This document shows, piece after piece, positions 33,282 to 57,673 of a DNA stretch of 57,673 bases; position 1 is the stretch's first letter; every line of letters starts with the position of its first letter. This DNA comes from Candidatus Omnitrophota bacterium (lineage in GTDB: Bacteria; Omnitrophota; Gorgyraeia; VGKN01). The notes under the pieces are model-generated. The model was not told where the DNA came from. It worked only from the letters and a program-made list of their open reading frames with translations, and did no database searches. Where the stretch lies: the NCBI GenBank assembly GCA_043800345.1, contig JAZDNB010000022.1:1-57673 (forward strand), read 5' to 3'. Position numbers and translations under genes: made by a program.

Positions 33282-33324
33282 TTTATACACCCCCTACATA
33301 ATTATTATTAATGTGACGTGTATG

Positions 33325-34377
33325 TTACTTTTTTTTGAGCTTTTCTCTTATTAATGCTGCACGTTTTAAATCACGCTCATTTGCATTCAGTACTTTCCCT
33401 TCTAATTTTTGAAGATGTGCAGGCTGGATTAAAAGAAATAACTCATTAATAGTCTGCCTGGTTAAATCCTTTACTATGCCGATATCGACACCAAGCCGTA
33501 AGCTTGAGAGCAGTTCAATTGTTTCTCCGGCACTGATAATATACGCATTTTTTAATGTCCCGTAGGAACGCCATATCTGGTCTTCCAAGGCCGACCTGCT
33601 ATGTTCAAAGAGGTTTTTCCTCAGGCTCTGCTCGTGTTCAATCACTTGTTTTATAATACGCTGGAGATTATCAAGGATGATATCTTCTTTTTGGCCGAGC
33701 GTCACCTGATTTGAAATCTGAAAGAAATTTCCCGCAGCTTCGGTACCTTCCCCATACAACCCCCTTACCGTCAAGCCTAACTTGGTGATTGCGTGGATAA
33801 TCTTGCCCATCTGTTTTGTCATAACAAGACACGGCAGATGTAACATACAGGAACCGCGCAGTGCCGTTCCTGTGTTCGTTGGACAGGCCGTCAGATACCC
33901 CCATTCGGGACTAAAGGCATAATCAAGCTTTGTCTCTAACTCCTTATCTATCTTATCTGCAAGCTTCCAGGTATCCTGTATATTAAAACCGGAGTGCATC
34001 ACCTGAATCCGCAGATGATCCTCTTCATTAACCATAATACTTACGATTTCCTTTTCTCCTATAACAACAGCCTTATGGTCAGGATTTTGCACAAATTCAT
34101 AACTTATAATATGCCTCTCGATAAGAAACTGCCTGTCAAGGGAATCTATTATGCTGAGTTTGACAAACAAACTGTCTTTTAAAAGCATGCTGTGAGCTAC
34201 CGCATTTTTTACGATACCAATCACTTCATCCATGTGCTTTTTACCTGCCCAGTGCACGAAGAGCATCTTATGTAAATTTCTTGCAAGCCTGATCCTTGAA
34301 CTTATCGCAATGTCAGACTGAGGGCCTGTCCCTTTAAGCCATTCGCATGGTTTTTTTACTATGTCGTTAAACTCCAT
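33325..34377 (-). CDS. mcsB: Protein arginine kinase McsB
   Basis: SSRIRLARN, NEEDHLR, ACPTNTG, QISNQVTLG, IQPAHLQ. Confidence 0.95.
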   Translation of the reverse strand: MEFNDIVKKPCEWLKGTGPQSDIAISSRIRLARNLHKMLFVHWAGKKHMDEVIGIVKNAVAHSMLLKDSLFVKLSIIDSLDRQFLIERHIISYEFVQNPDHKAVVIGEKEIVSIMVNEEDHLRIQVMHSGFNIQDTWKLADKIDKELETKLDYAFSPEWGYLTACPTNTGTALRGSCMLHLPCLVMTKQMGKIIHAITKLGLTVRGLYGEGTEAAGNFFQISNQVTLGQKEDIILDNLQRIIKQVIEHEQSLRKNLFEHSRSALEDQIWRSYGTLKNAYIISAGETIELLSSLRLGVDIGIVKDLTRQTINELFLLIQPAHLQKLEGKVLNANERDLKRAALIREKLKKK

Positions 34378-34389
34378 CACACCCTCCGA

Positions 34390-43703: not shown

Positions 43704-44802
43704 TTATTTTTTCGCCTTCCATTTTAAATATGCCTCGATAAAACCGTCAATATCGCCGTCGATCACATAAAGCGCTTTTGCTGTTTCATGGGCGGTCCTG
43801 TGGTCCTTTACCATGGTATATGGCTGGAACACGTAAGAGCGTATCTGGCTTCCCCAGGCAATATCCTGTTTTGCGCCGTAACGCGCTTCCTCCTTTTTCT
43901 TTCTCTCTTCCATCTTCTGTTCATATAGGCGCGCCCGCAATATTCTCATCGCGGTCTGTTTATTCTGAAACTGCGAACGCTCGTTCTGGCACTGCACGAT
44001 GAGTCCGGTCGGGATGTGCGTAATGCGCACGGCGGAATCGGTAGTATTAACGCCTTGGCCGCCCGGGCCGCTTGCGCGGTATACGTCAATTTTTATGTTT
44101 TCGTTTTTTATTTCTATTTCCTTGGTATCTTCTATCTCCGGTATGACGTCAACAGAGGCAAATGAGGTATGCCTTCTTTTGTTTGCGTCAAAGGGGGATA
44201 TGCGCACAAGCCTGTGGACCCCGGTTTCTGATTTTAGATAGCCAAATGCGAAATGGCCCTTTATAATCATCGTGGCATTTTTTATTCCGGCTTCTTCTCC
44301 GGGGAGCATATCCACGACTTCTGTTTTAAAACCCTTGCTCTCCGCCCATCGTGAATACATCCGTAAGAGCATCTTCGCCCAGTCGCAGGATTCAGTCCCG
44401 CCTGCGCCAGAGTTAACGCTTACAATTGCATTATTTTTATCGTGCTCGTCTCCTAAGAGCTTGTTAAATTCAAGTTCCGTTATTTTTTTTGATACGCTCT
44501 CAAGTTCTTTTTCAAAATCTTTTATCGTTTGTTCGTCGTTTTCTTCGATGATATCGATGAGTTCCGATATATCCTTGAATTTGTGCAGTGCTTCGTTAAA
44601 GGGATCAACGTTGACTTTTAGCTGCTTTAATTCCTCGATAACCTTACCTGCGGTTTCCTGATTATCCCAGAAACCCTTCTGCGCCATGGAGAGCTCTATT
44701 TCGGATATCCGTGTGTTCAGTTTTTCGACGTCAAAGATACCCCCTGAGTTCGTCGATTTTTGAAGAAATATCCTTTAATCTCTCTTTCAATTCATTAAGC
44801 AT
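43704..44802 (-). CDS. prfB: Peptide chain release factor 2, programmed +1 frameshift after codon 23 (about 365 aa)
   Basis: GGAGG RBS, ATG 44802, [23 protein letters not shown]-stop; the +1 frame continues [22 protein letters not shown]; SPF and GGQ motifs. Confidence 0.97.
44730..44745 (-). promoter_or_regulatory. RF2 autoregulatory frameshift site
   Basis: AGGGGG-TAT-CTT-TGA-C: internal Shine-Dalgarno plus the slippery CUU-UGA-C. Confidence 0.97.
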
Positions 44803-44910
44803 AACTATCCTCCAAAATTTAAGTAGCATTAAATTATCATATTTAAGGAAGGATTACAACAGAAAAGCACGGATAACCAACCTTGGCGTTGAATAGATTA
44901 GAAAAATACT

Positions 44911-44980: not shown

Positions 44981-47900
44981 CTACAATGTCCTGTCATATG
45001 GTACGCGTGTCTGCAATACTTCTTTGGTTATAGCCTGGGTTACAACGCCGGTCAATCTAAAAAGATCGCCGTCATCGAGCTTTCCGTGGCTTGCCTTTTC
45101 TATACACAGTTTCATGATAATATCCATCATCTCTTTGGATGTCGGCGTTTTCTCAAAATACATAAACTTATTATACCCTTTTACTTCGCGTGCGCCCTCT
45201 CCTATACCGATAAACACAATATCTATACCGAGCTCTGCTTCCAATGCTTTTAATTGTTTCCGTAACTCGCTAAACGATACCCCGGAGGTTTCGCCTCCGT
45301 CAGTGAATATTATTTCTAATTTATTCGGCTTATCTTTTCGCGTCGCATATTTTCGGCGTATGCCGTTCATGACCGAGACAGTATTAATACCGCCTCTGTC
45401 CGGTACATGCCAGAGATTGCCAAGTCCCTTCTCTACACTATCTTTATTCCGGCAGTCGGGAAAATCAAGAAGCAAATGGTGCTTATCTCCTATCGCGCCC
45501 AGCGAAAATTCCATATCCCTATTTATCGAAGCGGCAAGGTAAAATAATGACGTATAAAAATCCGACATTTGCGTAAAACTATTTTTTAACGGGGAATTAC
45601 CCAGTACGCTTCCGCTTATATCAACGGTAATACCGCAACTGAGCATTCCTTCGCGCTTAAGCCTTTTTACCTGGATAAAAGGCTCAAGCGAACCCATAAT
45701 CTTGAGGATAATATCTATTTCTTCTCCCGATTCGGCAGGCGTCCTCACTATCTGCTCGGGGGCGGCGAATATGTTAAGAAAATCCCTCACCAAGTGAGGA
45801 GAGATAGTCAAGAGTTCTTTTATCTTGTCTGCCAGGCCGCCCTCGGCGTCCGTATAAAAATCATCCTCAATCTCCGTATCCCGCTTTTTTTCCTCGTCTT
45901 CTTCTATGATGCCTTCATCGGGATTTTTATCCTGTTCTGTCATCTCAATTTCTTCATCAACGTCCTCTTCGTCTATGATATCAAATTCGGGAGATTCTTC
46001 TAAATCACCCTGGATTTCCTCTATCTGAAGCCCTCCTTTTCCGTGCGCAAGTTTAATCCTATATTTTCCCGCTTCTACGGTAGAGAGGTATTTCTCCGGT
46101 TCCTCAAAGAAAGTTCGTGCCGCATCCCGTATATCATTCTGCTTCATATAATGCTTTATACCTTCGAATATCCTCGTTACGTCAGATACGTCAAAGTTTT
46201 CATCAAAGTTAGAAATCATATAGTATCTATATGACGAGTTATAATGTTCGTCCATATAAATGGCGAATCCGTTAAGGATTGCCTTTGCGGCCTGACAGTA
46301 ATAATCCTTTCTCGCTCTTTCGAGCCCCCCGATTGCAACAACATTTCTTATTCTTTGTACAAGATCATATTCTATATATTTTAGTGCATCTGATGAAAAT
46401 AATAACGGGAATAGGGTCGAATAAAGCTCTATGTTCCTTTTTAAGCTTCTTCTCTTTATTACATTCTGGAACAGGTGGCCTAGTTCATGGAAGGCGGTCC
46501 AGTCTATTGCTTCCTGCTCGCTAACATGCGCTAGAAGCGCTTCCTCTGCCGACGGTTTTTCAAGGGCAATAGCAAATTCCCCTTCAAAATAACCAAGGAT
46601 AGAGCCCTGGCTAGAATCAACTACAAGCACCTGTGGTTCATTGCCAAGCACCTTCCATTCGTCCCAATTTTTCTTCTCTAGCGAACCTTGTTGAAGAAGA
46701 GAATCAAGACCATCCGGGGCCTTTAATCTCTGCGTTATTTTGCCTTTTACCGTAATCATTATATATGGTTTTTTGTTTATAATCAGACACTTCATGCTGC
46801 AGAAATAATTTCCCTTCGCTATAGTTCTTCTTAGGGAAAGCACTATTCGCCTAAGGGCACTCATCTTAATAATTTTTTCTTTGTAAAGCGCCGTCAGTTG
46901 CTCAACCTCTGTGCGTATACCGAGCTTTTTGGCAATATCAAGAAGCCGGTCTACATTAATACCTTCCGTGTCACGATGGGTTAGAGCAAATAAGAACGGC
47001 TGAAGGATTTTCTCAATAAAGTAAGGCATTTGGGCGTCGGGCTGCTCTTTAGCATATTCGGAAATAGCATTATTTATGGCATTTTTATCGTACGATATGA
47101 CTACTTTTTGCTTGACGCTACGGCGAGGTTTTTTAGGTGTTGTTTTTTCGCCTTCGGGTTCCACCTCTATAATGTCGTCAATTATTTCATCCTGCGAAAC
47201 CAATTCGGGCATATCGGCTGAAATATCTCTTATTTTGTCCGGTTCCGTTTTTATTTCCCTCACCCCGCTCGGCACGACAAAAGAAACCTGTTTCACCTGG
47301 CCAGATAATTCCTTCTTTACCTTGTCTATTCCCCTTCTGTGTATTTCCTTAAGAATATTAAAACGGTCTGTCCTGTTGTATTTCAAAGGATCGGGCATCC
47401 ACAGCTTGATTGCGTTAAAACTTAACTCATTCGCTATTGAATACCTCCCTGCATATTTTTCGGCGGGATTAAACGTCAACACCACCAAAACGTCCGAATC
47501 AAGTTCTACTTCAAATACCTCTCCCGCAAAATATACGCTGAATTTCCTTTCCCCTCTGAAGAGCGGCATAAGCGCAAAGAGGACATCGGGATTGGCATTT
47601 GCTTCATCCAGAAGCAATATCTTACGGTTTGCGTCCTGTTTCTGCGGCAGATGCACTCTTTTACCGTTTATTGTTCCGCACCGCGCCAGAAACTCTTTTA
47701 TCCCCACTTTAAACTTACCTTCCTCAAGGCGCAACTCCGCAGTTATATCCGAAACGCGGATATCTTCATAGGCATTCAATTGATAGAAGGGAATTCCCCA
47801 GATATCGGATATGCTATGCAGAAGGGTTGTCTTTCCTGTCCCGCTTTCTCCGTTTAAAAGCACAACCCGGGGATTAATAATTCTTCCGCTTGGCTCCTGT

Positions 47901-50900
47901 ATTCTTAAAAATGCCTTAATGAGCGCACTCATAAGTTGCCGTATGGTGTTGGTATATTCGATATAGCTCCTGCTTGTGGTTTCATGCGGCGGAAGGGAAT
48001 ATGCCTTTGCGCTCGTATCCCTGGGGATATCCTGCCCTCCTATCGAACTTAGTAAACGGCAGACAACAACAAGGTATTTTCCGTCAAGCAGTTTAACGCC
48101 CATGGTAGGAGAAAGCATTTTAAGCTTCCCGTCTTTTATATCCTGCGTTTTAAAACTATAGATATTACCCGGCGTCTGAATAATAATTTCTCCCTCTACC
48201 TTGATAACCGTTATGCCGTTATCGAGCACGATACCGCGGTTTATTTCTTCGGCATCCACACGGATACGGGGATGCTCAAACTCTTCAAAACTGATTGTGG
48301 TCAAACCGACGGTAATTTCATCCTTCAGCGCCTGATATATCTTGTCAGTGTCGGCATCTGACACCTGATTGTCTCTAAAAATAAACCTTTTTAGCCAATG
48401 GTCCTTCATAAGTTCCTGTTCAAACTTCACCTTGTCGGACTCTTCGAGAGCAGCCAGATAAAATAACATGAATGCCTTTAAGCAATAATAGAGAGGGTTT
48501 GGATGAAACGATTTTTTATCTACATCTTTCTGTTTTTCGCGTTGTATAAGTGCAGCGATTTCGAATATATCTTTTATCGAGAAACCGTAACGTATGTTAA
48601 AAACGCCGCTTCTATCAAATTGATACATCTTGACTGCTATGGCCCTGATCCAGAGCAGTTCTTTTTTAGTCACATTGGGATATCTGCTTTTTATTATATC
48701 CCTCAGTTCGGAAAGATCCTTCAGCGAACGGACTGCAATACGGCTGAAGCGGTTTATGAAAGGCGAGGAAAATTTATGCTCAAGCGGAGCCGATACCACA
48801 ATATGCGCCCATTCGGGAAGCACATATACAACTCTTTCCCCTTTTTCGTCGATAAGGGCAATGTTGCGCTCCGCAAGTAATCTATGCAACATGACTCGCT
48901 GTCTTTCCGGTATGGTATCCATATAACTAAAGAATAGAATCTTGTTGGCATGAGTACCTTCTCTTCTGGCTCTCTCCAGTTCATCTTCTCTTACGAGATG
49001 CATTGCCAGGAAACCAAGCGCCATCTTAAGACCTTCTGAAATTTTTTCTGTCTTAACCCCGTAGTCATCCATCTCATCAAACAAAGGAAGAAGACTTTCT
49101 AATAAATGCATACGCGTCATTTCATAGTGACAATCCGATGCATAGAGCTCCCACTCACTCATCAGAGAAAAACGTTTTACAAGGTCCGCTACATCCGCTC
49201 CGTCTTCCTCAAGCAAGGCTACGGGCCTTCCAAGGGATAAGGCGAGGGCAAAATCTCTTAAGGCCTTATTGGTAGAACCCACGTCAAGACCCGAAGAATA
49301 GCGCAGGTCATCATGGCGCGGTACAAGATCGGCATTGCCGTTTCCTGCAGAAAGCACAATACCTCCAAAATCTATTGTCCCATTAGTCCTGGTAACCTTC
49401 AGTGTCCCCCGCCACTCTTTTAGCCTCTCTTTGAGCTCGCCCGAGAGACTGTCTCCGTCAAAGATCTCTTCGATCATAGCCCACAAATTATTGAATTCGT
49501 TTTCTGATACCACCGTAGAAAGATAGTTAATCATTATGCCCTGGAACAGGGCCCTTGAAAGATCCTGTTCTTTGAGCGGTTTTTCCAGTTCTTTCTTAAG
49601 TAGCTGGGTAAAAGCGATTAACTGACGCGGACTTAATTCGTCTCTTGCCGGATGCTCATACAAAAATTTTCTATGCAGCCGGGCGATTTTATATTTTAAC
49701 TCCATGGGTAATTGCGGGACATCTTTTAAGTAATACTCAAGAATCCTTATACAATCTTCTTCGCTCAAGCGGTTATCAACCCATATCTTCATTGCTTGAC
49801 TATCTATGGTATATGGTATGCTGGATCTGCCCTTTGTCGCGTTGGACGGATTCTGGGTTATGGCAAGATGGAAATTTGGGTCTCTGGGTAGCCGAAGCTT
49901 AAGCCCCGGATGAAAATGCCCAAGATAAAGTTCCTCTAGCTGCGACACGCTTTGTAACAATGACAATAGCTCCTGGGAGTTTTTGCCCATTGCCCCTTCG
50001 TCTGCGTTATAGATTCCCCCGGTTGCAGCTTCGGGATTGCGATAATAGGCATTAAGAAAATCTATGAGAAATCTGCCCTGGGAATCTTTTTCTGCTGCGG
50101 TGAGAATCACCTTTTTCCCCTGTATCGTAAGTCTTCCCACCGCCTCGCCGATATCTATATCTTCATACATCAAACCATTATAATTCGGAAGTTTTATCCT
50201 CTGTGACAGGTCTTCTATGGAAGAAGTTTTTCCTCCTCCCTGATACCCTTCCAGAATAATGCTGCGATTATGTTTTAACGCGATAAGCATACTTGCATAG
50301 CGCCTTACCGATTCTTCCGTGGGGGCGAGAAATTTATCCTTGATAACTTCCACGTCCTCTAAATCCTTAAACCCCGTCTTAAACCATAGCAGTTCATTAA
50401 CCACGAGATATACAGAACCGTCACTGCCAACTTCATATCGCAGGGCATTTTTTGGGTCGGTGATGAAGGGTGCTTCTACTACGTCGCTAACGGTACTTTT
50501 AAGCTTTTCCGGCATATCGCGATGACATCTGATTCCGCCTAAATACTCGGGTATAAGTCCTATGGCGAGAGTGTAATAACCGATTTCTTTTATGAGCGAA
50601 AGAGGGTCCTTTTGAGGATATTTCTTTAAGGCCTCCCCCAATTCCGACAAGAAGGTATCAAGGTCGCTTCTGCTTATGCGAAGATGTTTATAAATAGAAT
50701 CCTCTTCTTCGGTCTTATAAAGCCAGTAGACGCTAAGGGCATAATCAATAATAGTTCTTTTGGTGTCGGCAGGAAGTGCTTTCATGTGGACGTTAAGGTG
50801 TTTACGGACATACTGCTCAACCCAGTCGCTGGTTATCGTTTCAGAGATATTTACGGGGCTAAACCTGTCAACTTCTGCAGGGCTTAAATTCGGCTTTTCC

Positions 50901-53900
50901 CCTGAACTGTCAAATGCTATAAACCTTAGGTTTTCAGGAAGCGTGGAATAAAACCACTGGGTCAATAACATTTTTTCTTCGTCGGTTAATTTTTCAAGAT
51001 CGCTAGAAAGTTTTGCTCTAGCGGTCCTGTTATATTGCTGTATGCTATCTTGAAATAATTTCTGATTTTGGCTAAAAACCATGACCAATTCTTGCACTCG
51101 TGATTCGGTCAGTACACCGTTTAAATCCAGTATACCGGTCTGGAAAAATTCATTCAAAAGAGGCGCTACCTTGGGGTTTAAGTGCATATAATTATACAAA
51201 AATGCCACATAAGGGGTATCGGGATGAAGGCGCGCGGTATATATTAATTCGGGTATTATACCTACGCCCATTTCAAACTCTATTTTCATCGTAGCCTGCA
51301 ACTGCCGTAATCGCTCATCAGCAGGCAATTCTTCTGCCTCCGACTCCTTGGTAACCAACCCTCCCACAAGCTGTCTCTTATTATGAAAATAACTTAAACT
51401 GATGGGTATTATCGTGGGACTGCCGAGCGTTTTCTTTATATCATCCTCTGTCTCTTGCTGATAATTCGCGCCGTTGGTAAATACGAAAAGAGCTCTTTTG
51501 CTTACAAGCAGCTTTCGCCTGAGCACATCGATAGGGCTTGGCGACGAAACGAAATATTTATAATTCTTTCCGGTAATGGTACGCGCTGTTTCTATATCAC
51601 CAATATTATGCCATACAAATATATAGTTATCTTCAAGCGCATGGCTAAGCGCCTCTTCTACGGTACTGCCTTCGTTAAGATATACAAAGAATGCCTCTAC
51701 GGTACGGACAAGCGCCCTTTTAGTAATATCCTGGCCTGAGACAAAAACGTCTTCGCGCACCGCACTTCTGAAGGCATTGTGAATAGAGGATAAACTATCA
51801 ACGAGCTGATCTAGCACACCGACATCAACTGTCTTGGCTGATTCTTTATTACCTTTAGCAAGGAGGTCTCTACATACTTTCGGGATTTCTTCGGAAGGAA
51901 TTTGCATATAGAAACGGACTAGATTGGCAGCAATGGAACGGGGGAGCGGTTCTCTTCCCTGGAACGTATCGGGATTAACGGTAAATAACCACAGGTTATT
52001 CTGGTCTATCGGAAGCGTCCTGAAGAGTTCGGCTGTTTCGGTATCCTGAAGAGGAAATTCGGGAAGATATTTCATGGGACGAGCCATAATTTCAGGATAT
52101 AACCAGTAATACAGTCCCTGACAGGTATTAATCTCATCCATAAGATGGAGATTTCCGGGGGTCTTTGCCGATGTCAGATAGCGCGGCTTAGAAATATAAT
52201 ACCTTCCGTACACATCGGGCGTTATCTGTCCGACAAACTGGGAAAGGTTTGTGTCTTCGTTTACCGTATAATGATTAAGGTTGTATCCGATTATCTTTGC
52301 AAAGGCCTTTCCTATTTCGGTTTTCCCCTCTCCGGACGGACCTTCCAGCTGAATCGCCACATGCCTGTAGCGTAATGTCCTGGCAAGCTGCGCAAAAATC
52401 CAACATTCGGTATCCGATATAATAAATCCTGTGAAGGCGAATATTAATTCTTCCGGGCTTAAGGAAGGATGCTGCGCTATAAAATCCCTAAAATCTCCGG
52501 AGATATCCAGCGCTACGTCCCCAAAATATATTTTACCTTCCTTTACCGTTATGGCAGGCGGTTTTGGCAGCGCCACAGTTGTGTATATACATTTTGCCAG
52601 CGATTCTTTTGATTTTTTGGTCATGACCTTCAGAGACAGATATCCGTATGTTTCTCTTTTAATCACTTCTTCTTCCGGACACTGTAAATCCTGCGCAACT
52701 CCGTAAATTGCTTTTGCTATCTGGACAATATCAAAAAAGAGCGTTCCGGATACATCAGCACTCTTTGTTTTCTTAAGCTGTCCATAGATATCAAGGAGTG
52801 TTTCTGCCGTCTCTTCGGAAACGTTGGTTTCTGCCTTTAGATATTTCATCATATCGGTATAAGAAGGATCCGGCACATACTGACGTATAGGCCTATCCAT
52901 AAAAGATGAATCCTTTATTTCGGAATCTTTGTGCATAGTAAAGACAATATGGACGTTGGCAGGCAAACTTATACTTATACCAAGCTCGGGTACTTCTACA
53001 ACGTTTTCAAGCAGCACCGGATTGAACTGGACCCTTACTCTGTCAGGCATGCCTTCTACATTCTCAAATAACAGGAAAAATTGTTCTCCTCTTTTCTTAA
53101 TCGCTTCATCCCGCACCAGCTTTAATATGCCGTCATACCACTTCATTTCTTTTTCCCAGTCATCGCCGTAGCGCAAGGCACAGCTTACCGCTGCTCGCAA
53201 TACGCTATCGGAAGAAAATTCCGAGCCCCAGCGCTTGAAATATTCCTCGATAAGGTTTGCGTCATGTCCCAGGCGAAGTACTCTGTCGAGCGCCTGTTTT
53301 ATATCATCATCCGTTGCCTTTCCTAATAAATACCGTATCTCATCTTCCCGGGGTATGCTCAGCGGAAGGTACATCCCGAAGAAATGCCTGCGTGCGGTAA
53401 ACTGGCTCATGGGAAGGCGCAGTAGATTCCTACCCGGCCTCATCAGGGCCTCCATTGCCTTATCTACCACATCAAGCGAGCTATCGGAAGTAAAGAGGAT
53501 AAGCGGTTTTTGTGCCTGCGCTGCCCTTTCAATCTTGGCTCTTGTTGCGCGTACTATCTTGATTTCATCTTCGTTTACCTGGCTCGATAAATCTTCGTAT
53601 GTTCCGTACCGTATAAGATTTTCGATAACCTTCCTGAGATTTGCAGACCGCAAAAGAGGTGAATCTACGGCTGCGATTTTGAGAAAATCATGGTATGTGC
53701 GGATATTTTTTTCAAGGATATCAACGAACATCTGGAGGGTATCCTCATCGGTAATGAGGAAACCGTAGATATTGGCTGCGGTAACGATAAAATACTCAAG
53801 TACGTTTTCAAGACTCCCCTTCTGCAGATAGAAACGGCTGAAGTCGATATTGAATTCTTTGAGTTCCCTGAAGGTAAATGCAAACTTCGGATTGCCGGCA

Positions 53901-56900
53901 TACTTTTTCTTTGCCATCTCAAGGAGCTCGTCATTTAAATCAATACTGAGATTGATGATCGTATCTTGGTCAGTATCGGAAAGTTTTTCTTCGGCGCGCC
54001 TTACTTCCTTTAAAATAAAGCGGTTGATGACCGCTTTAAACGGACCTTCTGCGTTATTATTAATAATGTCATTGAACTCTCCGTATGAAAGCCCTACTAC
54101 TACTTCCTTAAGCTCTTTTCTTAATTTCAGATATAGATACATTGCATAAGGTTCTTCGTGAAAATTTACCATGGTGACTTCTCTGAAAAGTTCATCGATA
54201 GGAGTCATCTCCGCCTTAGGGTCCACCATGGACTTCGGCACCAATAATTTTATTACCTTCTCTTCGGATAGATCGCTCAACTGTAATACATCTGCCGCGC
54301 GGTCTATAAAGTTAACCATGCTTATCTCATTGGGTCTCATGCCTTTCTTTTTAATATCAGCAGCGATACCATTAAAAAACGACTTAATAAGATGGTCGCT
54401 GTTTGCATTAACCAGTATTTGTAACGCCTCGTTTAGATAAGGAAGGTCTGCCTGTATAATCCAATCATTCTGTATCAGATTTTCAAATATTTTATATATG
54501 CTATCCGCCGTAGCAGGAGGTGGCATTGCGTTGATTTTTTTGCAAATTGCCGTTATCTGTTCAAAATTAGCGCCTGCAATTATCCCCTTTGACACCATGG
54601 CAACCATAAGCTTCCAAGGAATGTCGCTACTCAGTACCTCGGCAAGAATCTGTTGCAGGGTAGCGGGAATACCGGACAGCGCAGCAATTAATACGGCAAG
54701 TTCTCCGGCAGTAAGTTTTTGCCTCAATGTTGTATCCCGGCTCATTGCCTGGATAATAACCTTCATAATCGCAATTTGGATTGATGCGGATACGGTAGGA
54801 CCAAGTTTGGCACGGGCTTCGAGTAATACACTCAGATGTTCGCTCGTTAAGGTAAGTTTACTATTATTATTAAGCGCCCCGTGGATTGCCTCGGCAATCC
54901 ACTCTTTTACCTTAGGAGGTGCGCTCTTAAAAAATCCAATTATAGGATTGATAAGGGATTCGTTTAATACATATGCCCTTGTTAACGCTGCAATAAACTT
55001 ATCTTTATGAGAAATAATCCCGGGAATTTCAAACCGGGCGAAAAACACATCGGTAAGTTCCGTATTGTATGCCATTGCAGCTCCTGTTGCCAAAGTTAAG
55101 AAGTCGTGTGTTTCTTTTAATACTTTCTGAGGTTTGCTCATACCAATGTACTGAGCAGTATCCCGTTCCAGCAATGCCAACAGAAACTCAAACCGCTCTT
55201 TCGACACCATAAAACCTTTTGTATTTTCCAATGCCTTTAAAATAGCAAAAACACACTCCCTTTCAGTAAGAGGAGAATCGGCATGCTCTATCGCTTTCCA
55301 TAATATATCAAATTGTTCGGCAGTTATGCTAAGTGCGGGATTATTTTTTAATACAAGACCAACCGAAGCGACAGCAGCCTGAAGCGTAGCGGCTGAAGAA
55401 GTTTCCATAACCTGCATAAGCAGCGCAAGACTGGAGGAGTCCAACATAAGTTTCGTGTTCTTCTGTAGGACATCTTGTAAAAATAGGAGAAGTTCCTCCT
55501 TTAAATCTCCCTCAATGAACGGCAGAATTCTACAAAGGGTATTACACATATCTTGATTAAGATTTCTCTGTTCCTTCAGATAATTGGCAACAACCCAGCA
55601 AAGTAACTTTTTAATGTCATCTGAAGCGCTGCGTTCAATATGCTGGACTAAAAGTGCAACAAGATCCCCGTTATTAAGAATGGTCTTTGATAAGAGTATT
55701 GCAGAAGTAGCCTGTTGCGTTGAAGAAAGCTCGGGAAGCGCTCTGATGATAACCTCGGCATGCCGTTCGGTTGGTTTTAAGGCCCGATTCTGGGTTAATA
55801 CGTTTTCGATAATTACTTCTACCTGGACATTGTGTTCATAGTGTTTATCAGTCCCTTCTCCTGTCTCGGTGTATAAGAGAGGATACAACACGTCAAGATG
55901 GGAGGCGGTAAATGTTTCAAAAAGTGCCTTGTTATTATCGGAGGAGAAAACTTTCAGAGAATCATTTATAATATCACATATAACCAGTCTCATCTCTGGG
56001 GAAGCGATTATAAGTGCATCAACCATACTATCGAGCAATTCCGGGTACATCTGCAGGGCCAGTCGGAACATCCCACCCATTGATTCTCTATAAGGGCTTT
56101 TTGACTGCTCATAATATATAAGAAGTGGCTTAAGAAGATCGGGGTTATTGCTAACTGCTATTGACCCTATGACGCCGAACCATTCTTCGAGAAGGGAAAA
56201 ATCAACCTTGCTCAAGCTTTCAAAATATGTAAAAAATTCATTGAGTTGCTGCGGTTTATTGGCAATTGAAAGAGCAATTACCTCCGATAAGGAATCTAAC
56301 ATATCAACCTCTTCTACTATCGTTTTACCTTTCTTCCCCAATTCGGAAAGCGCCGATAGAAGAAGTGTCAGATTTCCCGACGAGAGGGCCAGAGCTGCAT
56401 TATGTTGCAAGAATGCGCTGATGGTATCTACAATGTACCCTCTGATATAAAAATCGGATGTATCTCTGAAGACATCTAAGAGCATATCGAGCTGTTCGGG
56501 GGTAGTTTTAATACCCGGATTTTTATGCAATATTCCGGCAATGATAAGGGCAAGCGAGCGCTCATGTTCGTCCTTTGCCCCTCTAAACCGGTCAAAGATA
56601 AGCAAAAATTCTTCATTGCTTAAGGGCACATCCGAAAACGCCTTTGCAATCCAATTCAGAAGATCCTTATCGGTAACGGCAAGGAAATAATCAAGCAGTG
56701 GTTCAATAAGCGTCTTATCGAGGGTCAGGGCATTATTTATAATAGAAGCCGCATATTGTTTTGCTGCATCGGAGGATTTTGCAACAACGTCAAGTAGCAC
56801 GTTAAGATATTCTTTTTCTTTAGATATAACCGTACCTGAAACTGCCGAGAGGAATATTTTTGTCTTTTCGTCCGATGAAGGGTCTTCCAGATAACGAACT

Positions 56901-57673
56901 ATATTACCAATAAGCCCATTATTGTTATGGAGGGCCGTTGAAAGCATATATACTGCCGGTGATCCCGCAGGCACTTGAATAACTGTCTGAAATGTATAGT
57001 CCTTTGGAGGTTGCGGTTTAGATGAAATCATGTCCTCAAATTCTATGATGCTTATGGAGTTATCTCCATAGTTAGTAACAAAAAGCTTACCCTCTACAAG
57101 GGCAATGCCTAATGGACTTATTAAGCCAAGGCCTGCATCCTTTTCAAATCTGTGGAGTTCTTTTCCTGTAGCGGGGTCTATGACGCTCATGGAGTGGTTA
57201 TTATGGTTAGTAATAAAAAGTTTGCCATTTGCGAAGGTGATGCCTGCCGGTCCGGCTAAGCCAAGGCCTGTACCCAATCCGAATCTATCGAGCTCTTTTC
57301 CCGTAGCGGGATCTATGACGCTGAGAGAGTGGTCATCATAGTTAGTAACAAAAAGTTTGCCATCTGCGAAGGTGATGCCTGCCGGTCTTTTTAAGTCAAG
57401 ACCTGTACCCAGTCCGAATCTATCGAGCTCTTTTCCCGTAGCGGGGTCTATGACGCTGAGAGAGTGGTCATCATAGTTAGTAACAAAAAGTTTGCCATCT
57501 GCGAAGGTAATGCCTGCCGGTCCTTTTAAGTCAAGACCTGTGTCTTTGCCGAATCTGCGGAGCTCTTTTCCCGTAGCGGGGTCTATGAGGATGATGGAGT
57601 CATCCAAAGAATTAGTGACAGCAAGGATGCCTTCGAAAATGATAATTCCGTCAGGGTCATTTAAATCAAGGCC
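44981..57673 (-). CDS. Giant (>=4230 aa, 5'-truncated) midasin-like protein: NHL repeats, helical solenoid, six AAA+ modules, HExxH, acidic tract, VWA/MIDAS
   Basis: Frame stays open past the track start (TTG 57607) to the window edge (GLDLNDPDGIIIFEGILAVTNSL). Walker A GPSGEGKT, GYQGGGKT, GESGTGKT; Walker B LMDE, NADE, LLDE; three further degenerate AAA-like modules; HELGH; VDISGS...TDG...IVFIGIG. Confidence 0.85.
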   Translation of the reverse strand, partial: GLDLNDPDGIIIFEGILAVTNSLDDSIILIDPATGKELRRFGKDTGLDLKGPAGITFADGKLFVTNYDDHSLSVIDPATGKELDRFGLGTGLDLKRPAGITFADGKLFVTNYDDHSLSVIDPATGKELDRFGLGTGLGLAGPAGITFANGKLFITNHNNHSMSVIDPATGKELHRFEKDAGLGLISPLGIALVEGKLFVTNYGDNSISIIEFEDMISSKPQPPKDYTFQTVIQVPAGSPAVYMLSTALHNNNGLIGNIVRYLEDPSSDEKTKIFLSAVSGTVISKEKEYLNVLLDVVAKSSDAAKQYAASIINNALTLDKTLIEPLLDYFLAVTDKDLLNWIAKAFSDVPLSNEEFLLIFDRFRGAKDEHERSLALIIAGILHKNPGIKTTPEQLDMLLDVFRDTSDFYIRGYIVDTISAFLQHNAALALSSGNLTLLLSALSELGKKGKTIVEEVDMLDSLSEVIALSIANKPQQLNEFFTYFESLSKVDFSLLEEWFGVIGSIAVSNNPDLLKPLLIYYEQSKSPYRESMGGMFRLALQMYPELLDSMVDALIIASPEMRLVICDIINDSLKVFSSDNNKALFETFTASHLDVLYPLLYTETGEGTDKHYEHNVQVEVIIENVLTQNRALKPTERHAEVIIRALPELSSTQQATSAILLSKTILNNGDLVALLVQHIERSASDDIKKLLCWVVANYLKEQRNLNQDMCNTLCRILPFIEGDLKEELLLFLQDVLQKNTKLMLDSSSLALLMQVMETSSAATLQAAVASVGLVLKNNPALSITAEQFDILWKAIEHADSPLTERECVFAILKALENTKGFMVSKERFEFLLALLERDTAQYIGMSKPQKVLKETHDFLTLATGAAMAYNTELTDVFFARFEIPGIISHKDKFIAALTRAYVLNESLINPIIGFFKSAPPKVKEWIAEAIHGALNNNSKLTLTSEHLSVLLEARAKLGPTVSASIQIAIMKVIIQAMSRDTTLRQKLTAGELAVLIAALSGIPATLQQILAEVLSSDIPWKLMVAMVSKGIIAGANFEQITAICKKINAMPPPATADSIYKIFENLIQNDWIIQADLPYLNEALQILVNANSDHLIKSFFNGIAADIKKKGMRPNEISMVNFIDRAADVLQLSDLSEEKVIKLLVPKSMVDPKAEMTPIDELFREVTMVNFHEEPYAMYLYLKLRKELKEVVVGLSYGEFNDIINNNAEGPFKAVINRFILKEVRRAEEKLSDTDQDTIINLSIDLNDELLEMAKKKYAGNPKFAFTFRELKEFNIDFSRFYLQKGSLENVLEYFIVTAANIYGFLITDEDTLQMFVDILEKNIRTYHDFLKIAAVDSPLLRSANLRKVIENLIRYGTYEDLSSQVNEDEIKIVRATRAKIERAAQAQKPLILFTSDSSLDVVDKAMEALMRPGRNLLRLPMSQFTARRHFFGMYLPLSIPREDEIRYLLGKATDDDIKQALDRVLRLGHDANLIEEYFKRWGSEFSSDSVLRAAVSCALRYGDDWEKEMKWYDGILKLVRDEAIKKRGEQFFLLFENVEGMPDRVRVQFNPVLLENVVEVPELGISISLPANVHIVFTMHKDSEIKDSSFMDRPIRQYVPDPSYTDMMKYLKAETNVSEETAETLLDIYGQLKKTKSADVSGTLFFDIVQIAKAIYGVAQDLQCPEEEVIKRETYGYLSLKVMTKKSKESLAKCIYTTVALPKPPAITVKEGKIYFGDVALDISGDFRDFIAQHPSLSPEELIFAFTGFIISDTECWIFAQLARTLRYRHVAIQLEGPSGEGKTEIGKAFAKIIGYNLNHYTVNEDTNLSQFVGQITPDVYGRYYISKPRYLTSAKTPGNLHLMDEINTCQGLYYWLYPEIMARPMKYLPEFPLQDTETAELFRTLPIDQNNLWLFTVNPDTFQGREPLPRSIAANLVRFYMQIPSEEIPKVCRDLLAKGNKESAKTVDVGVLDQLVDSLSSIHNAFRSAVREDVFVSGQDITKRALVRTVEAFFVYLNEGSTVEEALSHALEDNYIFVWHNIGDIETARTITGKNYKYFVSSPSPIDVLRRKLLVSKRALFVFTNGANYQQETEDDIKKTLGSPTIIPISLSYFHNKRQLVGGLVTKESEAEELPADERLRQLQATMKIEFEMGVGIIPELIYTARLHPDTPYVAFLYNYMHLNPKVAPLLNEFFQTGILDLNGVLTESRVQELVMVFSQNQKLFQDSIQQYNRTARAKLSSDLEKLTDEEKMLLTQWFYSTLPENLRFIAFDSSGEKPNLSPAEVDRFSPVNISETITSDWVEQYVRKHLNVHMKALPADTKRTIIDYALSVYWLYKTEEEDSIYKHLRISRSDLDTFLSELGEALKKYPQKDPLSLIKEIGYYTLAIGLIPEYLGGIRCHRDMPEKLKSTVSDVVEAPFITDPKNALRYEVGSDGSVYLVVNELLWFKTGFKDLEDVEVIKDKFLAPTEESVRRYASMLIALKHNRSIILEGYQGGGKTSSIEDLSQRIKLPNYNGLMYEDIDIGEAVGRLTIQGKKVILTAAEKDSQGRFLIDFLNAYYRNPEAATGGIYNADEGAMGKNSQELLSLLQSVSQLEELYLGHFHPGLKLRLPRDPNFHLAITQNPSNATKGRSSIPYTIDSQAMKIWVDNRLSEEDCIRILEYYLKDVPQLPMELKYKIARLHRKFLYEHPARDELSPRQLIAFTQLLKKELEKPLKEQDLSRALFQGIMINYLSTVVSENEFNNLWAMIEEIFDGDSLSGELKERLKEWRGTLKVTRTNGTIDFGGIVLSAGNGNADLVPRHDDLRYSSGLDVGSTNKALRDFALALSLGRPVALLEEDGADVADLVKRFSLMSEWELYASDCHYEMTRMHLLESLLPLFDEMDDYGVKTEKISEGLKMALGFLAMHLVREDELERARREGTHANKILFFSYMDTIPERQRVMLHRLLAERNIALIDEKGERVVYVLPEWAHIVVSAPLEHKFSSPFINRFSRIAVRSLKDLSELRDIIKSRYPNVTKKELLWIRAIAVKMYQFDRSGVFNIRYGFSIKDIFEIAALIQREKQKDVDKKSFHPNPLYYCLKAFMLFYLAALEESDKVKFEQELMKDHWLKRFIFRDNQVSDADTDKIYQALKDEITVGLTTISFEEFEHPRIRVDAEEINRGIVLDNGITVIKVEGEIIIQTPGNIYSFKTQDIKDGKLKMLSPTMGVKLLDGKYLVVVCRLLSSIGGQDIPRDTSAKAYSLPPHETTSRSYIEYTNTIRQLMSALIKAFLRIQEPSGRIINPRVVLLNGESGTGKTTLLHSISDIWGIPFYQLNAYEDIRVSDITAELRLEEGKFKVGIKEFLARCGTINGKRVHLPQKQDANRKILLLDEANANPDVLFALMPLFRGERKFSVYFAGEVFEVELDSDVLVVLTFNPAEKYAGRYSIANELSFNAIKLWMPDPLKYNRTDRFNILKEIHRRGIDKVKKELSGQVKQVSFVVPSGVREIKTEPDKIRDISADMPELVSQDEIIDDIIEVEPEGEKTTPKKPRRSVKQKVVISYDKNAINNAISEYAKEQPDAQMPYFIEKILQPFLFALTHRDTEGINVDRLLDIAKKLGIRTEVEQLTALYKEKIIKMSALRRIVLSLRRTIAKGNYFCSMKCLIINKKPYIMITVKGKITQRLKAPDGLDSLLQQGSLEKKNWDEWKVLGNEPQVLVVDSSQGSILGYFEGEFAIALEKPSAEEALLAHVSEQEAIDWTAFHELGHLFQNVIKRRSLKRNIELYSTLFPLLFSSDALKYIEYDLVQRIRNVVAIGGLERARKDYYCQAAKAILNGFAIYMDEHYNSSYRYYMISNFDENFDVSDVTRIFEGIKHYMKQNDIRDAARTFFEEPEKYLSTVEAGKYRIKLAHGKGGLQIEEIQGDLEESPEFDIIDEEDVDEEIEMTEQDKNPDEGIIEEDEEKKRDTEIEDDFYTDAEGGLADKIKELLTISPHLVRDFLNIFAAPEQIVRTPAESGEEIDIILKIMGSLEPFIQVKRLKREGMLSCGITVDISGSVLGNSPLKNSFTQMSDFYTSLFYLAASINRDMEFSLGAIGDKHHLLLDFPDCRNKDSVEKGLGNLWHVPDRGGINTVSVMNGIRRKYATRKDKPNKLEIIFTDGGETSGVSFSELRKQLKALEAELGIDIVFIGIGEGAREVKGYNKFMYFEKTPTSKEMMDIIMKLCIEKASHGKLDDGDLFRLTGVVTQAITKEVLQTRVPYDRTL
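57035..57673 (-). repeat. 135-bp (45-aa) intragenic tandem repeat, NHL/YVTN-type propeller blades, at least 4.7 copies
   Basis: Unit GLDLKGPAGITFADGKLFVTNYDDHSLSVIDPATGKELDRFGLGT; units at 57539-57673, 57404-57538, 57269-57403, 57134-57268 plus a partial unit. Confidence 0.92.

Follow-up and report, generated by a model that had tools for sequence, protein, structure and literature searches.

A giant Omnitrophota protein whose six midasin-like AAA modules carry ATP-pocket motifs and arginine fingers in alternation

Results

A giant reading frame with six AAA+ modules

The window analysed here, 57,673 nucleotides (nt) of DNA from a Candidatus Omnitrophota bacterium, is an entire contig (JAZDNB010000022.1; C31 in our numbering) of a 967 kb, 62% complete assembly (GCA_043800345.1). 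Its minus strand carries a giant open reading frame (44981..57673; stop codon 44981-44983) of at least 4230 amino acids (aa), the 5' end being open at the window end. Amino acid numbering throughout follows the window translation of this frame (4230 aa). The frame encodes a chain of six AAA+ modules, M1 to M6, in which the elements of an ATP pocket and the arginine finger fall on alternate modules. The modules, the segment before them and their key motifs, the latter located by string match, are as follows.

53558..53884, minus strand (aa 1264-1372, 109 residues): 'pre' segment, motif TFRELKEF, with Arg R1269 at 53867-53869
52439..53557, minus strand (aa 1373-1745): M1, degenerate AAA module, by profile comparison and motif search
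52892-52906, minus strand: finger SFMDR of M1
51530..52438, minus strand (aa 1746-2048): M2, active-type AAA_5 module, by Pfam, motif search and alignment
52319-52342, minus strand: Walker A GPSGEGKT of M2
50354..51529, minus strand (aa 2049-2440): M3, degenerate module, recognisable as AAA only via M1 and M5
50861-50878, minus strand: finger AEVDRF of M3
49304..50353, minus strand (aa 2441-2790): M4, active-type module, by Pfam, motif search and alignment
50225-50248, minus strand: Walker A GYQGGGKT of M4
47984..49303, minus strand (aa 2791-3230): M5, degenerate module, by profile comparison and motif search
48746-48763, minus strand: finger PFINRF of M5
47264..47983, minus strand (aa 3231-3470): M6, active-type module, by Pfam, motif search and alignment
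47828-47851, minus strand: Walker A GESGTGKT of M6

An earlier sequence-only reading of this DNA had described the modules from 22 short motif strings; all 22 were found in one minus-strand frame, once each and within ~30 nt of where they had been placed. All five elements of the AAA_5 clade are present in the chain, split by class, with the pocket elements in M2, M4 and M6 and the finger in M1, M3 and M5. M2 carries Walker A K1784 (52322-52324), Walker B D1846-E1847 (D1846 at 52136-52138), sensor-1 N1900 and sensor-2 R1986 (51716-51718), with N1917 (51923-51925) in the finger column. The corresponding residues of M4 are K2482 (50228-50230), D2558-E2559, N2608 and R2683 (49625-49627), with Q2626 (49796-49798) in the finger column, and those of M6 are K3281 (47831-47833), D3356-E3357 and N3402, with N3420 (47414-47416). 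M6 is without a full lid because only ~35 residues remain past strand beta-5.

Among the odd modules, M1 has the P-loop G-K deleted (PLILFTSDSS), F-E-N at the Walker B position, finger Arg R1594 (52892-52894) and a lid without a sensor-2 Arg. The P-loop is absent from M3 (ALFVFTNGAN), which carries finger Arg R2270 (50864-50866). M5 has LLEEDGAD in place of the P-loop, S-Y at the Walker B position and finger Arg R2975 (48749-48751), and its lid is followed by a beta-rich insert of ~130 aa.

Conservation of the alternation among relatives

Relatives were collected by word search (3), from 15 further genomes of 401 scanned (16 of the 401 matched, including the window's own), and from 3 metagenome loci and 15 genome loci, 6 of these duplicates; the M3-based locus search used an alignment of the 6 closest rows. 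The family alignment, to which the row counts below refer, comprised 27 non-redundant rows with 24-60% identity to the window protein, some of them partial.

Walker A Lys, Walker B Glu and sensor-1 Asn were each found in every row of M2 (27/27), M4 (25/25) and M6 (22/22), as was sensor-2 Arg in M2 (27/27) and M4 (25/25), this element being not applicable to M6. Arg stood at the even-module finger column in 1/27 rows of M2, 0/25 of M4 and 1/22 of M6. The 'GR' Arg after sensor 1 was present in 27/27, 25/25 and 18/22 rows of M2, M4 and M6, respectively, and by eye was absent from the odd modules. The M6 P-loop reads A-K-T instead of G-K-T in 15/22 rows, which is no sign of decay, because the MoxR ATPase RavA uses A51-K52-S53 (PMC6987120; here and below, papers given by PMC identifier are cited from extracts of their text).

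In the odd modules, the finger Arg was conserved in all rows (M1, 27/27; M3, 27/27; M5, 24/24), and GK[ST] was found at the P-loop position in none (M1, 0/26; M3, 0/27; M5, 0/25). The M1 and M5 lids have Asp and Lys, respectively, at the position of the midasin sensor-2 Arg, and M3 and M5 often carry Ser or Thr where sensor 1 would be. The M1 Walker B position is [ED]-N, acidic in 22/27 rows and Asn in 27/27. The sequence-only reading had assigned Walker A, Walker B and sensor 1 without a finger to the even modules, a finger to the odd modules, and a sensor-2 Arg to M2 and M4 but not to M1 or M5, and the alignment bears out each of these assignments. Its statement that the odd modules have lost Walker A likewise stands, whereas the accompanying statement for Walker B does not hold in full, since M1 retains part of that motif.

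Spread of the family in a protein library

A profile of pre+M1+M2+M3 was searched against 1.84 billion representatives, giving 898 proteins at E<=1e-3, 544 at <=1e-10 and 91 at <=1e-30. The best 150 of the 898 were annotated with hidden Markov models (HMMs) of the six modules. Every family member among them showed the order 'no P-loop, P-loop, ...'. For representatives with at least four modules, alternation was strict in 58 of 60, the other two each having a single even module split into two matches, and the exact odd-even order over six modules was found in 47 of 60. The expectation that homologues conserve the alternation was thus borne out.

A P-loop regular expression matched 1/174 odd modules, by chance and outside the P-loop, and 190/201 even modules. 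Of the 11 even modules that failed it, nine have V, L, R or I before K[ST] (eight M6 and one M2), one has VPGAGKT, a normal GK[ST] missed by the expression, and one match, without K[ST], is ended by the end of the protein. Over 89 representatives, the Walker A Lys was present in 75/75 M2, 61/61 M4 and 57/57 M6 modules, and the finger Arg in 23/31 M1, 25/28 M3 and 58/58 M5 modules, every miss being a gap from a split match.

Those genomes of the same class in which homologues were found are labelled 'Candidatus Omnitrophota'. Some relatives (L051/L053, L055, L064, L056 and L063) come from assemblies labelled Planctomycetales/Planctomycetia, Candidatus Auribacterota or Deltaproteobacteria, which may reflect mislabelled bins or transfer between phyla. 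One genome, G292, carries two tandem paralogues of the whole protein on contig C5 (15914-21997 and 31520-37648; L022 and L007, also L053 and L051), with frames of 4927 and 4971 aa that lie ~10 kb apart and are 41-42% identical to the ring of the window protein.

Library matches below the family were mostly proteins with five or six P-loop modules, and of ten that were looked up, the five with a eukaryotic source or a midasin name are midasins or probable midasins. Other prokaryotic single chains with four to six AAA_5 modules, all with P-loops, were also seen: P0135 (4005 aa, 'AAA family ATPase [Thermoproteota archaeon]'), P0137 (partial, Candidatus Omnitrophota) and P0112 (7557 aa). P0135 shows M-R-N-K-F in every second module where midasin shows R-N-R-F. 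For questions about how six-module rings arose, these three proteins are natural comparators.

AAA ancestry of the odd modules and alignment register

Pfam AAA_5 (PF07728; E 2.7e-19, 70 bits against a cut-off of 22, in two stretches) matched the P-loop modules only, and the odd segments were blank, single-sequence Pfam scans of M1, M3 and M5 giving no match. In hmmsearch, the M1 and M3 profiles found no AAA chain among solved structures. These results would suit a protein with three MoxR-type AAA domains joined by unrelated spacers, the odd 'modules' being an artefact of alignment by eye. Profile-profile comparison makes this very improbable. Against profiles of 11 aligned midasin sequences, hhalign matched M1 to midasin AAA1 at 98.4% (E 4.6e-15, 260 columns) and M5 to AAA5 at 97.8% (255 columns). 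The M1 alignment places PLILFTSDSS over the P-loop with G-K deleted, F-E-N over I-E-D and R1594 over the midasin AAA1 Arg; that of M5 places LLEEDGAD over GxxGxGKT, S-Y over D-E and NRF over NRF. The M5 HMM also matched solved Rea1, a midasin, motif by motif with E 5.4e-12, a value summed from weak per-module matches. Odd-odd pairs matched one another at 97.2-97.7%, M3 matching M1 and M5 at 97.6-97.7%, and an invariant Arg stands exactly at the finger column. Compared directly with the midasin modules, M3 matched none of them (best 19%), and it is tied to AAA domains only transitively, through M1 and M5. By these alignments, the odd modules are AAA-derived, as had been proposed.

The finger columns of the even modules (N1917, Q2626 and N3420) were taken from the HMMER register against Rea1, independently of the sequence-only reading, whose by-eye register was upheld by the comparison with solved midasin. 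The Arg of the Rea1 [NS]RF motif aligns both with R2975 of M5 and with the column of Q2626 in M4. Basic residues three positions further on were considered as even-module fingers, namely R1920 of M2 (Arg in 6/27 rows), K2629 of M4 (49787-49789; Lys in 23/25) and K3423 of M6 (47405-47407; Lys in 19/22). They were rejected, as the same register sets them three residues past the finger column; K2629 and K3423 stand at the start of strand beta-5.

For the active modules, a 23-row M4 profile matched solved Rea1 with E 2.1e-60, the best stretch scoring 48.9 bits over 293 positions including the lid. Matches of this profile to solved MoxR proteins ranged from 2e-6 to 1e-3 (NorQ, 2e-6; CbbQ, 2e-5) and covered the P-loop part only. 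The single M4 sequence gave no match to solved chains at 1e-3. As judged from the profiles, solved MoxR proteins are much more distant from the active modules than midasin is.

Module tree

A quick IQ-TREE tree with SH-like approximate likelihood ratio (SH-aLRT) support was built from 86 module large domains over 198 columns, taking the six modules from each of 8 of the 27 family rows and 6 of the 11 midasins; two ClpC domains encoded in the window served as outgroup. All 12 module types came out as single groups. The separate odd and even clades that had been anticipated were recovered, (M1,M3,M5) with SH-aLRT 99 and (M2,M4,M6) with SH-aLRT 90, which fits triplication of an already differentiated inactive/active pair. 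The bacterial odd clade stands beside midasin AAA1 (90), within a group that includes AAA3 and AAA5 (87). One-to-one orthology of M1 with midasin AAA1 was considered and rejected: AAA1 is the best hhalign partner of M1, yet in the tree M1 falls with M3 and M5. Constraining M1 with AAA1 cost 14.8 log-likelihood units, with an approximately unbiased test p value (p-AU) of 0.041, a marginal result for a group that was named after the tree had been viewed.

Midasin modules compared with one another by hhalign scored 273 (A1-A3), 389 (A3-A5) and 414 (A2-A4), against 180-300 across classes, and by these scores midasin itself shows the same odd/even similarity classes. The sequence-only reading had called the pattern different from that of midasin; this is right for the motifs, whereas the similarity classes and the overall layout are shared.

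A tentative reading, which we consider possible but hold with less than even confidence, is that eukaryotic midasin has in this family a prokaryotic sister, or a surviving relative of its ancestor. If so, the single-chain ring of a triplicated odd/even pair arose outside or before eukaryotes, and so did the missing M6 small domain, the acidic stretch and the MIDAS tail described below. Zhang and Aravind derive the six tandem AAA+ domains from MoxR early in eukaryotic evolution (PMC3495828), and the sister reading, if true, would contradict the origin given in that extract. In the bacterial branch, subfunctionalisation would then have run to completion and produced a covalent (activator-ATPase)3 ring, whose three non-adjacent sites cannot fit a strictly sequential, around-the-ring model of hydrolysis.

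The C-terminal tail, acidic stretch and VWA domain

Three further segments follow the modules.

46022..47263, minus strand (aa 3471-3884, 414 aa): tail from the ring to the acidic stretch, with HExxH motif HELGH at 46475-46489
45836..46021, minus strand (aa 3885-3946): acidic stretch, 31 Asp/Glu in 62 residues
44984..45835, minus strand (aa 3947-4230): C-terminal VWA domain with MIDAS motif, comprising DxSxS at VDISGS (45608-45625), Thr in GGINT and Asp in IFTDGGE

The tail is a putative zinc-peptidase-like domain; a single-sequence Pfam scan of it matched no model. Pfam VWA_2 matched the C-terminal domain with E 0.0027, below the cut-off. In hhalign, the match of this domain to the MIDAS domain of midasin reached 95% (E 4e-8) over 165 columns and took in the stretch ahead of strand 1. 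In the 52 relatives with at least 500 aa after M6, the HExxH tail domain was found in 26 and the VWA domain in 51, where it starts ~230-1680 aa past M6 (~450-620 aa in most). One relative, P0003, has a transglutaminase-like domain (PF01841) at the tail position instead of the HExxH domain. The segment between ring and VWA domain is thus interchangeable, HExxH or transglutaminase-like, both being peptidase-type folds, and recalls the MoxR-vWA-transglutaminase operons.

N-terminal regions, contig end and neighbouring genes

Two regions precede the pre segment.

57044..57673, minus strand (aa 1-210): NHL/YVTN-type beta-propeller repeats (Pfam NHL and PQQ_2; NCBIfam beta_rpt_yvtn, E 3.5e-21)
53885..57043, minus strand (aa 211-1263): long helical-repeat region, from reading of the sequence; ARM/HEAT-like by eye

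The Pfam scan gave no match past the propeller, and the helical-repeat region (aa 211-1263) is assigned to no family. A second contig, C37 (L066:2221-11988, plus strand), has terminal 141 bases identical to window positions 57533-57673, and its frame of 3256 aa begins with ATG and reads into this overlap. Besides an N-terminal hydrophobic helix and an HELYH motif, that frame encodes helical repeats of great length and propeller repeats in two sets. The giant frame probably continues on C37 with 3256 further N-terminal residues, and the joined protein, if the join is correct, would comprise ~7439 aa, encoded by a gene of ~22 kb, would start with the hydrophobic helix and would probably be membrane-anchored. 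The join needs long reads, because it falls within repeated propeller units.

Downstream of the giant frame lie prfB, secA, lnt, lysS, lolCE and lolD, and further on mcsB-like and clpC genes. The gene for a McsB-like ATP:guanido phosphotransferase (33325-34380, minus strand) adjoins a ClpC-type gene (Clp_N, UVR; 30852-33290, minus strand), a pair that sits amid an otherwise diderm gene set (Lnt, LolCDE, TamB). Upstream of the prfB frame (43704-44687) is a 32-codon frame (44730-44829, minus strand) that ends ...LRGYL, with its stop inside CTTTGAC (44730-44736), and the RF2 frame begins at PCRF profile position 12. Together, the two look like the usual programmed +1 frameshift of prfB.

A proposed ring with three composite ATPase sites

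What the sequences establish is the pattern of motifs and how it is conserved, the descent of the odd modules from AAA domains, the separation of the modules into two clades, and the order of the domains. Building on these, we infer ring closure, action of the arginines in trans, a role for R1269, and the substrate and cellular role outlined below. We propose that the motor core is a six-module chain of the MoxR/midasin/dynein clade forming a pseudo-threefold ring with three composite ATPase sites, a reading to which we give a probability of roughly 60%.

In the proposed mechanism, M2, M4 and M6 would be the nucleotide binders, with Walker A and B, sensor 1 and, in M2 and M4, a lid sensor 2, and would have lost the finger. 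M1, M3 and M5 would be pseudo-ATPase 'activators' that lack the P-loop, catalytic Glu and sensor-2 Arg and keep the finger Arg at the end of helix 4. The finger for the site of module i would come from module i+1, giving composite sites of M2 with R2270 of M3, M4 with R2975 of M5 and M6 with R1594 of M1, the last of which would close the ring. This direction (3->2, 5->4 and 1->6) had been assigned in the sequence-only reading and agrees with Rea1, in which helix H4 of AAA5L provides the finger to the AAA4 site (PMC6286127). It is the only arrangement that gives each conserved Arg a live pocket.

At closure, a sensor-2-bearing half-lid N-terminal to M1 may complete the M6 site as a split lid, R1269 supplying the Arg, and could be likened to the midasin N-terminal domain that replaces the missing AAA6 small domain. 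R1269 is invariant (24/24 rows). In hhalign, the pre segment matched the M2 lid at 66% (E 5.5e-5), with T-F-R-E-L aligned to I-T-K-R-A-L and R1269 opposite R1986. A complex prediction of pre+M1 against M6 with ATP scored 0.22, against a mark of 0.32, in a run whose controls were not folded, and speaks neither for nor against ring closure. Analogy with midasin and with MoxR-vWA-peptidase systems suggests that the three sites, as they turn over ATP, might pull on or remodel a protein bound by the MIDAS domain, perhaps so that it can be cleaved.

A chain without a closed six-module ring was weighed next to this proposal, the modules forming three separate pairs, an open spiral or inter-chain rings, with the Arg acting within a pair or being structural. 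The data show nothing of closure, long inserts part the pairs (~130 aa after M5, and >1000 aa between modules in distant relatives), and M6 has no lid of its own. Yet in the chain-order pair M1-M2, the M1 finger would point away from M2, taking the direction of donation from the extract of PMC6286127. Only closure would bring the M1 Arg to its partner M6, so this Arg, whose conservation (27/27) equals that of the other two, makes sense only in a closed ring. An invariant R1269 in the lid-like stretch ahead of M1 also fits closure. We regard the absence of a closed ring as unlikely.

The number of working sites was weighed from the M2 Walker B motif. Its Asp is replaced by Asn or Ser in 25/27 rows and in 74/75 library modules, D-E being found in the window protein and one close relative, whereas M4 and M6 have D-E in all rows. 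Because of this replacement, M2 in most relatives may bind ATP without hydrolysing it well. The alternation could then be real while only M4 and M6 hydrolyse, the M2 nucleotide being structural or regulatory, as likened to the nucleotide sites of midasin AAA1/AAA6 and dynein AAA2; Rea1 indeed has sites without Walker B (PMC6286127). On the other hand, the window protein carries the canonical D1846-E1847, no row lacks the Walker B Glu of M2 (27/27) or departs from its sensor-1 Asn and sensor-2 Arg, and the conservation of R2270 of M3 (27/27) would be hard to explain if M2 never hydrolysed. We consider two hydrolysing sites a serious but less probable account than three. The 'exactly three sites' of the sequence-only reading thus suits the window protein and is weakened family-wide. 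The lineage of the window has either regained or kept the M2 Walker B Asp.

Besides the replaced M2 Asp and the blank Pfam and hmmsearch results for odd modules given above, several observations weigh against the three-site ring. M3 lacks a direct match to any midasin module or solved chain. The odd clade may owe part of its support to long-branch attraction, in a quick tree with SH-aLRT support only and a weak root (65). The proposal does not account for the conserved Lys that M4 and M6 carry three residues past the finger column. The pre half-lid matches the M2 lid only, and weakly, and hhalign of pre against the midasin N-terminal domain and all six midasin modules found no match (best 1.2%). 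Finally, the neighbours of the giant frame are housekeeping genes of a diderm bacterium and give no hint of its function.

Discussion

The earlier interpretation of this protein is partly supported, in that all of its predictions that could be tested on sequence came out as expected. The protein belongs to a deep, conserved family in which every second module alone has an ATP pocket and the others survive as finger donors. This is a clean case of complementary degeneration after duplication, the pocket elements being kept in one copy and the trans element in the other. Current models of AAA+ motors lean on hydrolysis passing between adjacent sites. The family is therefore a natural case in which to ask if a motor of the midasin/dynein clade can work with three non-adjacent sites, and each site can be mutated alone because all six modules share one chain. 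The finding also places a midasin-like layout, comprising a six-module chain, an acidic stretch and a MIDAS domain, in bacteria, and so bears on the origin of the dynein/midasin ring. Pfam detects none of the odd modules, so a protein of this type is annotated as 'three AAA domains' and the ring that it would form goes unnoticed.

The literature searched, with supplementary files, which may list such proteins, outside its scope, contained no description of a bacterial midasin-like six-module protein or of the alternation. In a preprint on giant genes of Omnitrophota, AAA_5 appears a single time, in the legend of a supplementary figure, and midasin, dynein, MoxR and von Willebrand do not appear at all; a 2026 Omnitrophota preprint mentions none of AAA, VWA, MoxR and dynein.

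Comparison with known systems

Midasin (Rea1/Mdn1), an AAA+ mechanoenzyme of eukaryotic ribosome assembly that takes assembly factors off pre-60S ribosomes in the nucleus, is among the closest known systems. Both are single chains of six AAA_5-type modules, the family being six-module by profile comparison, with odd and even similarity classes, and midasin is by far the best match of the active modules among solved structures. Module 6 has no full small domain in either chain; in Rea1 an N-terminal segment takes its place (PMC6286127), and here the pre segment may do so. Both have an acidic stretch directly before a C-terminal MIDAS/VWA domain, although it is 62 aa long here and hundreds in midasin. 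They differ in that midasins mostly have six P-loops (11 aligned sequences), with four working sites, AAA2-5, according to the extract of PMC6286127, whereas the family has three P-loops in alternate modules. The linker of ~1700 aa in midasin is replaced by a tail of ~415 aa with HExxH, and a huge N-terminal region with propellers and helical repeats is added. The bacterial odd modules form one clade and are not paired one-to-one with AAA1, AAA3 and AAA5. With a bacterial host, the substrate must differ from the pre-60S ribosomes of midasin. The layout is thus midasin-like, while the defining features of midasin, namely six P-loops, a long linker and a eukaryotic role, are absent.

MoxR-vWA(-peptidase) systems, which include RavA-ViaA, NorQ-NorD, CbbQ-CbbO and the MoxR-vWA-YebA transglutaminase-like operon, likewise combine an AAA_5-type ATPase with a MIDAS vWA partner and sometimes a membrane-proximal peptidase (PMC3495828, PMC7159879). 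The operons with a transglutaminase have been proposed to be membrane-proximal degradation systems (PMC3495828). In the present family, ring, peptidase-like tail (HExxH or transglutaminase-like) and vWA domain are fused in one chain. The M6 A-K-T variant matches A51-K52-S53 of RavA. MoxR proteins assemble as homohexamers of a single module and so have six equal sites, whereas here six modules of two classes share a chain.

Dynein and RNF213 are also single-chain rings of six AAA modules, some of which do not bind nucleotide (for dynein, PMC4047620). The dead modules of dynein are contiguous, AAA5-6, and not strictly alternate (PMC4047620). A complementary split into finger-only and pocket-only modules was not found described for either protein in the literature examined. 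In RNF213, the dead modules are AAA1, 2, 5 and 6, likewise contiguous and again not strictly alternate. The alpha3beta3 (A3B3) heads of F1/V1-ATPases are pseudo-threefold rings in which catalytic P-loop subunits alternate with non-catalytic ones, and the arginine finger of each catalytic site comes from a non-catalytic subunit. They differ from the present chain in belonging to the RecA/F1 class and not to AAA+, in consisting of separate polypeptides and in an alpha subunit that still binds nucleotide.

A parallel in mechanism is LAP1/LULL1-Torsin, for which an alternating (activator-ATPase)3 ring with three active sites has been proposed (PMC4358337). There, a nucleotide-free AAA-like activator keeps a strictly conserved finger Arg and alternates with an ATPase that has no finger, as set out in the same extract. 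These partners are separate polypeptides of another AAA+ clade in the eukaryotic endoplasmic reticulum lumen, whereas here three copies of each partner are covalently joined within a single bacterial chain, which belongs to the MoxR/midasin clade. The likeness is one of mechanism by analogy, without sequence relation or family membership.

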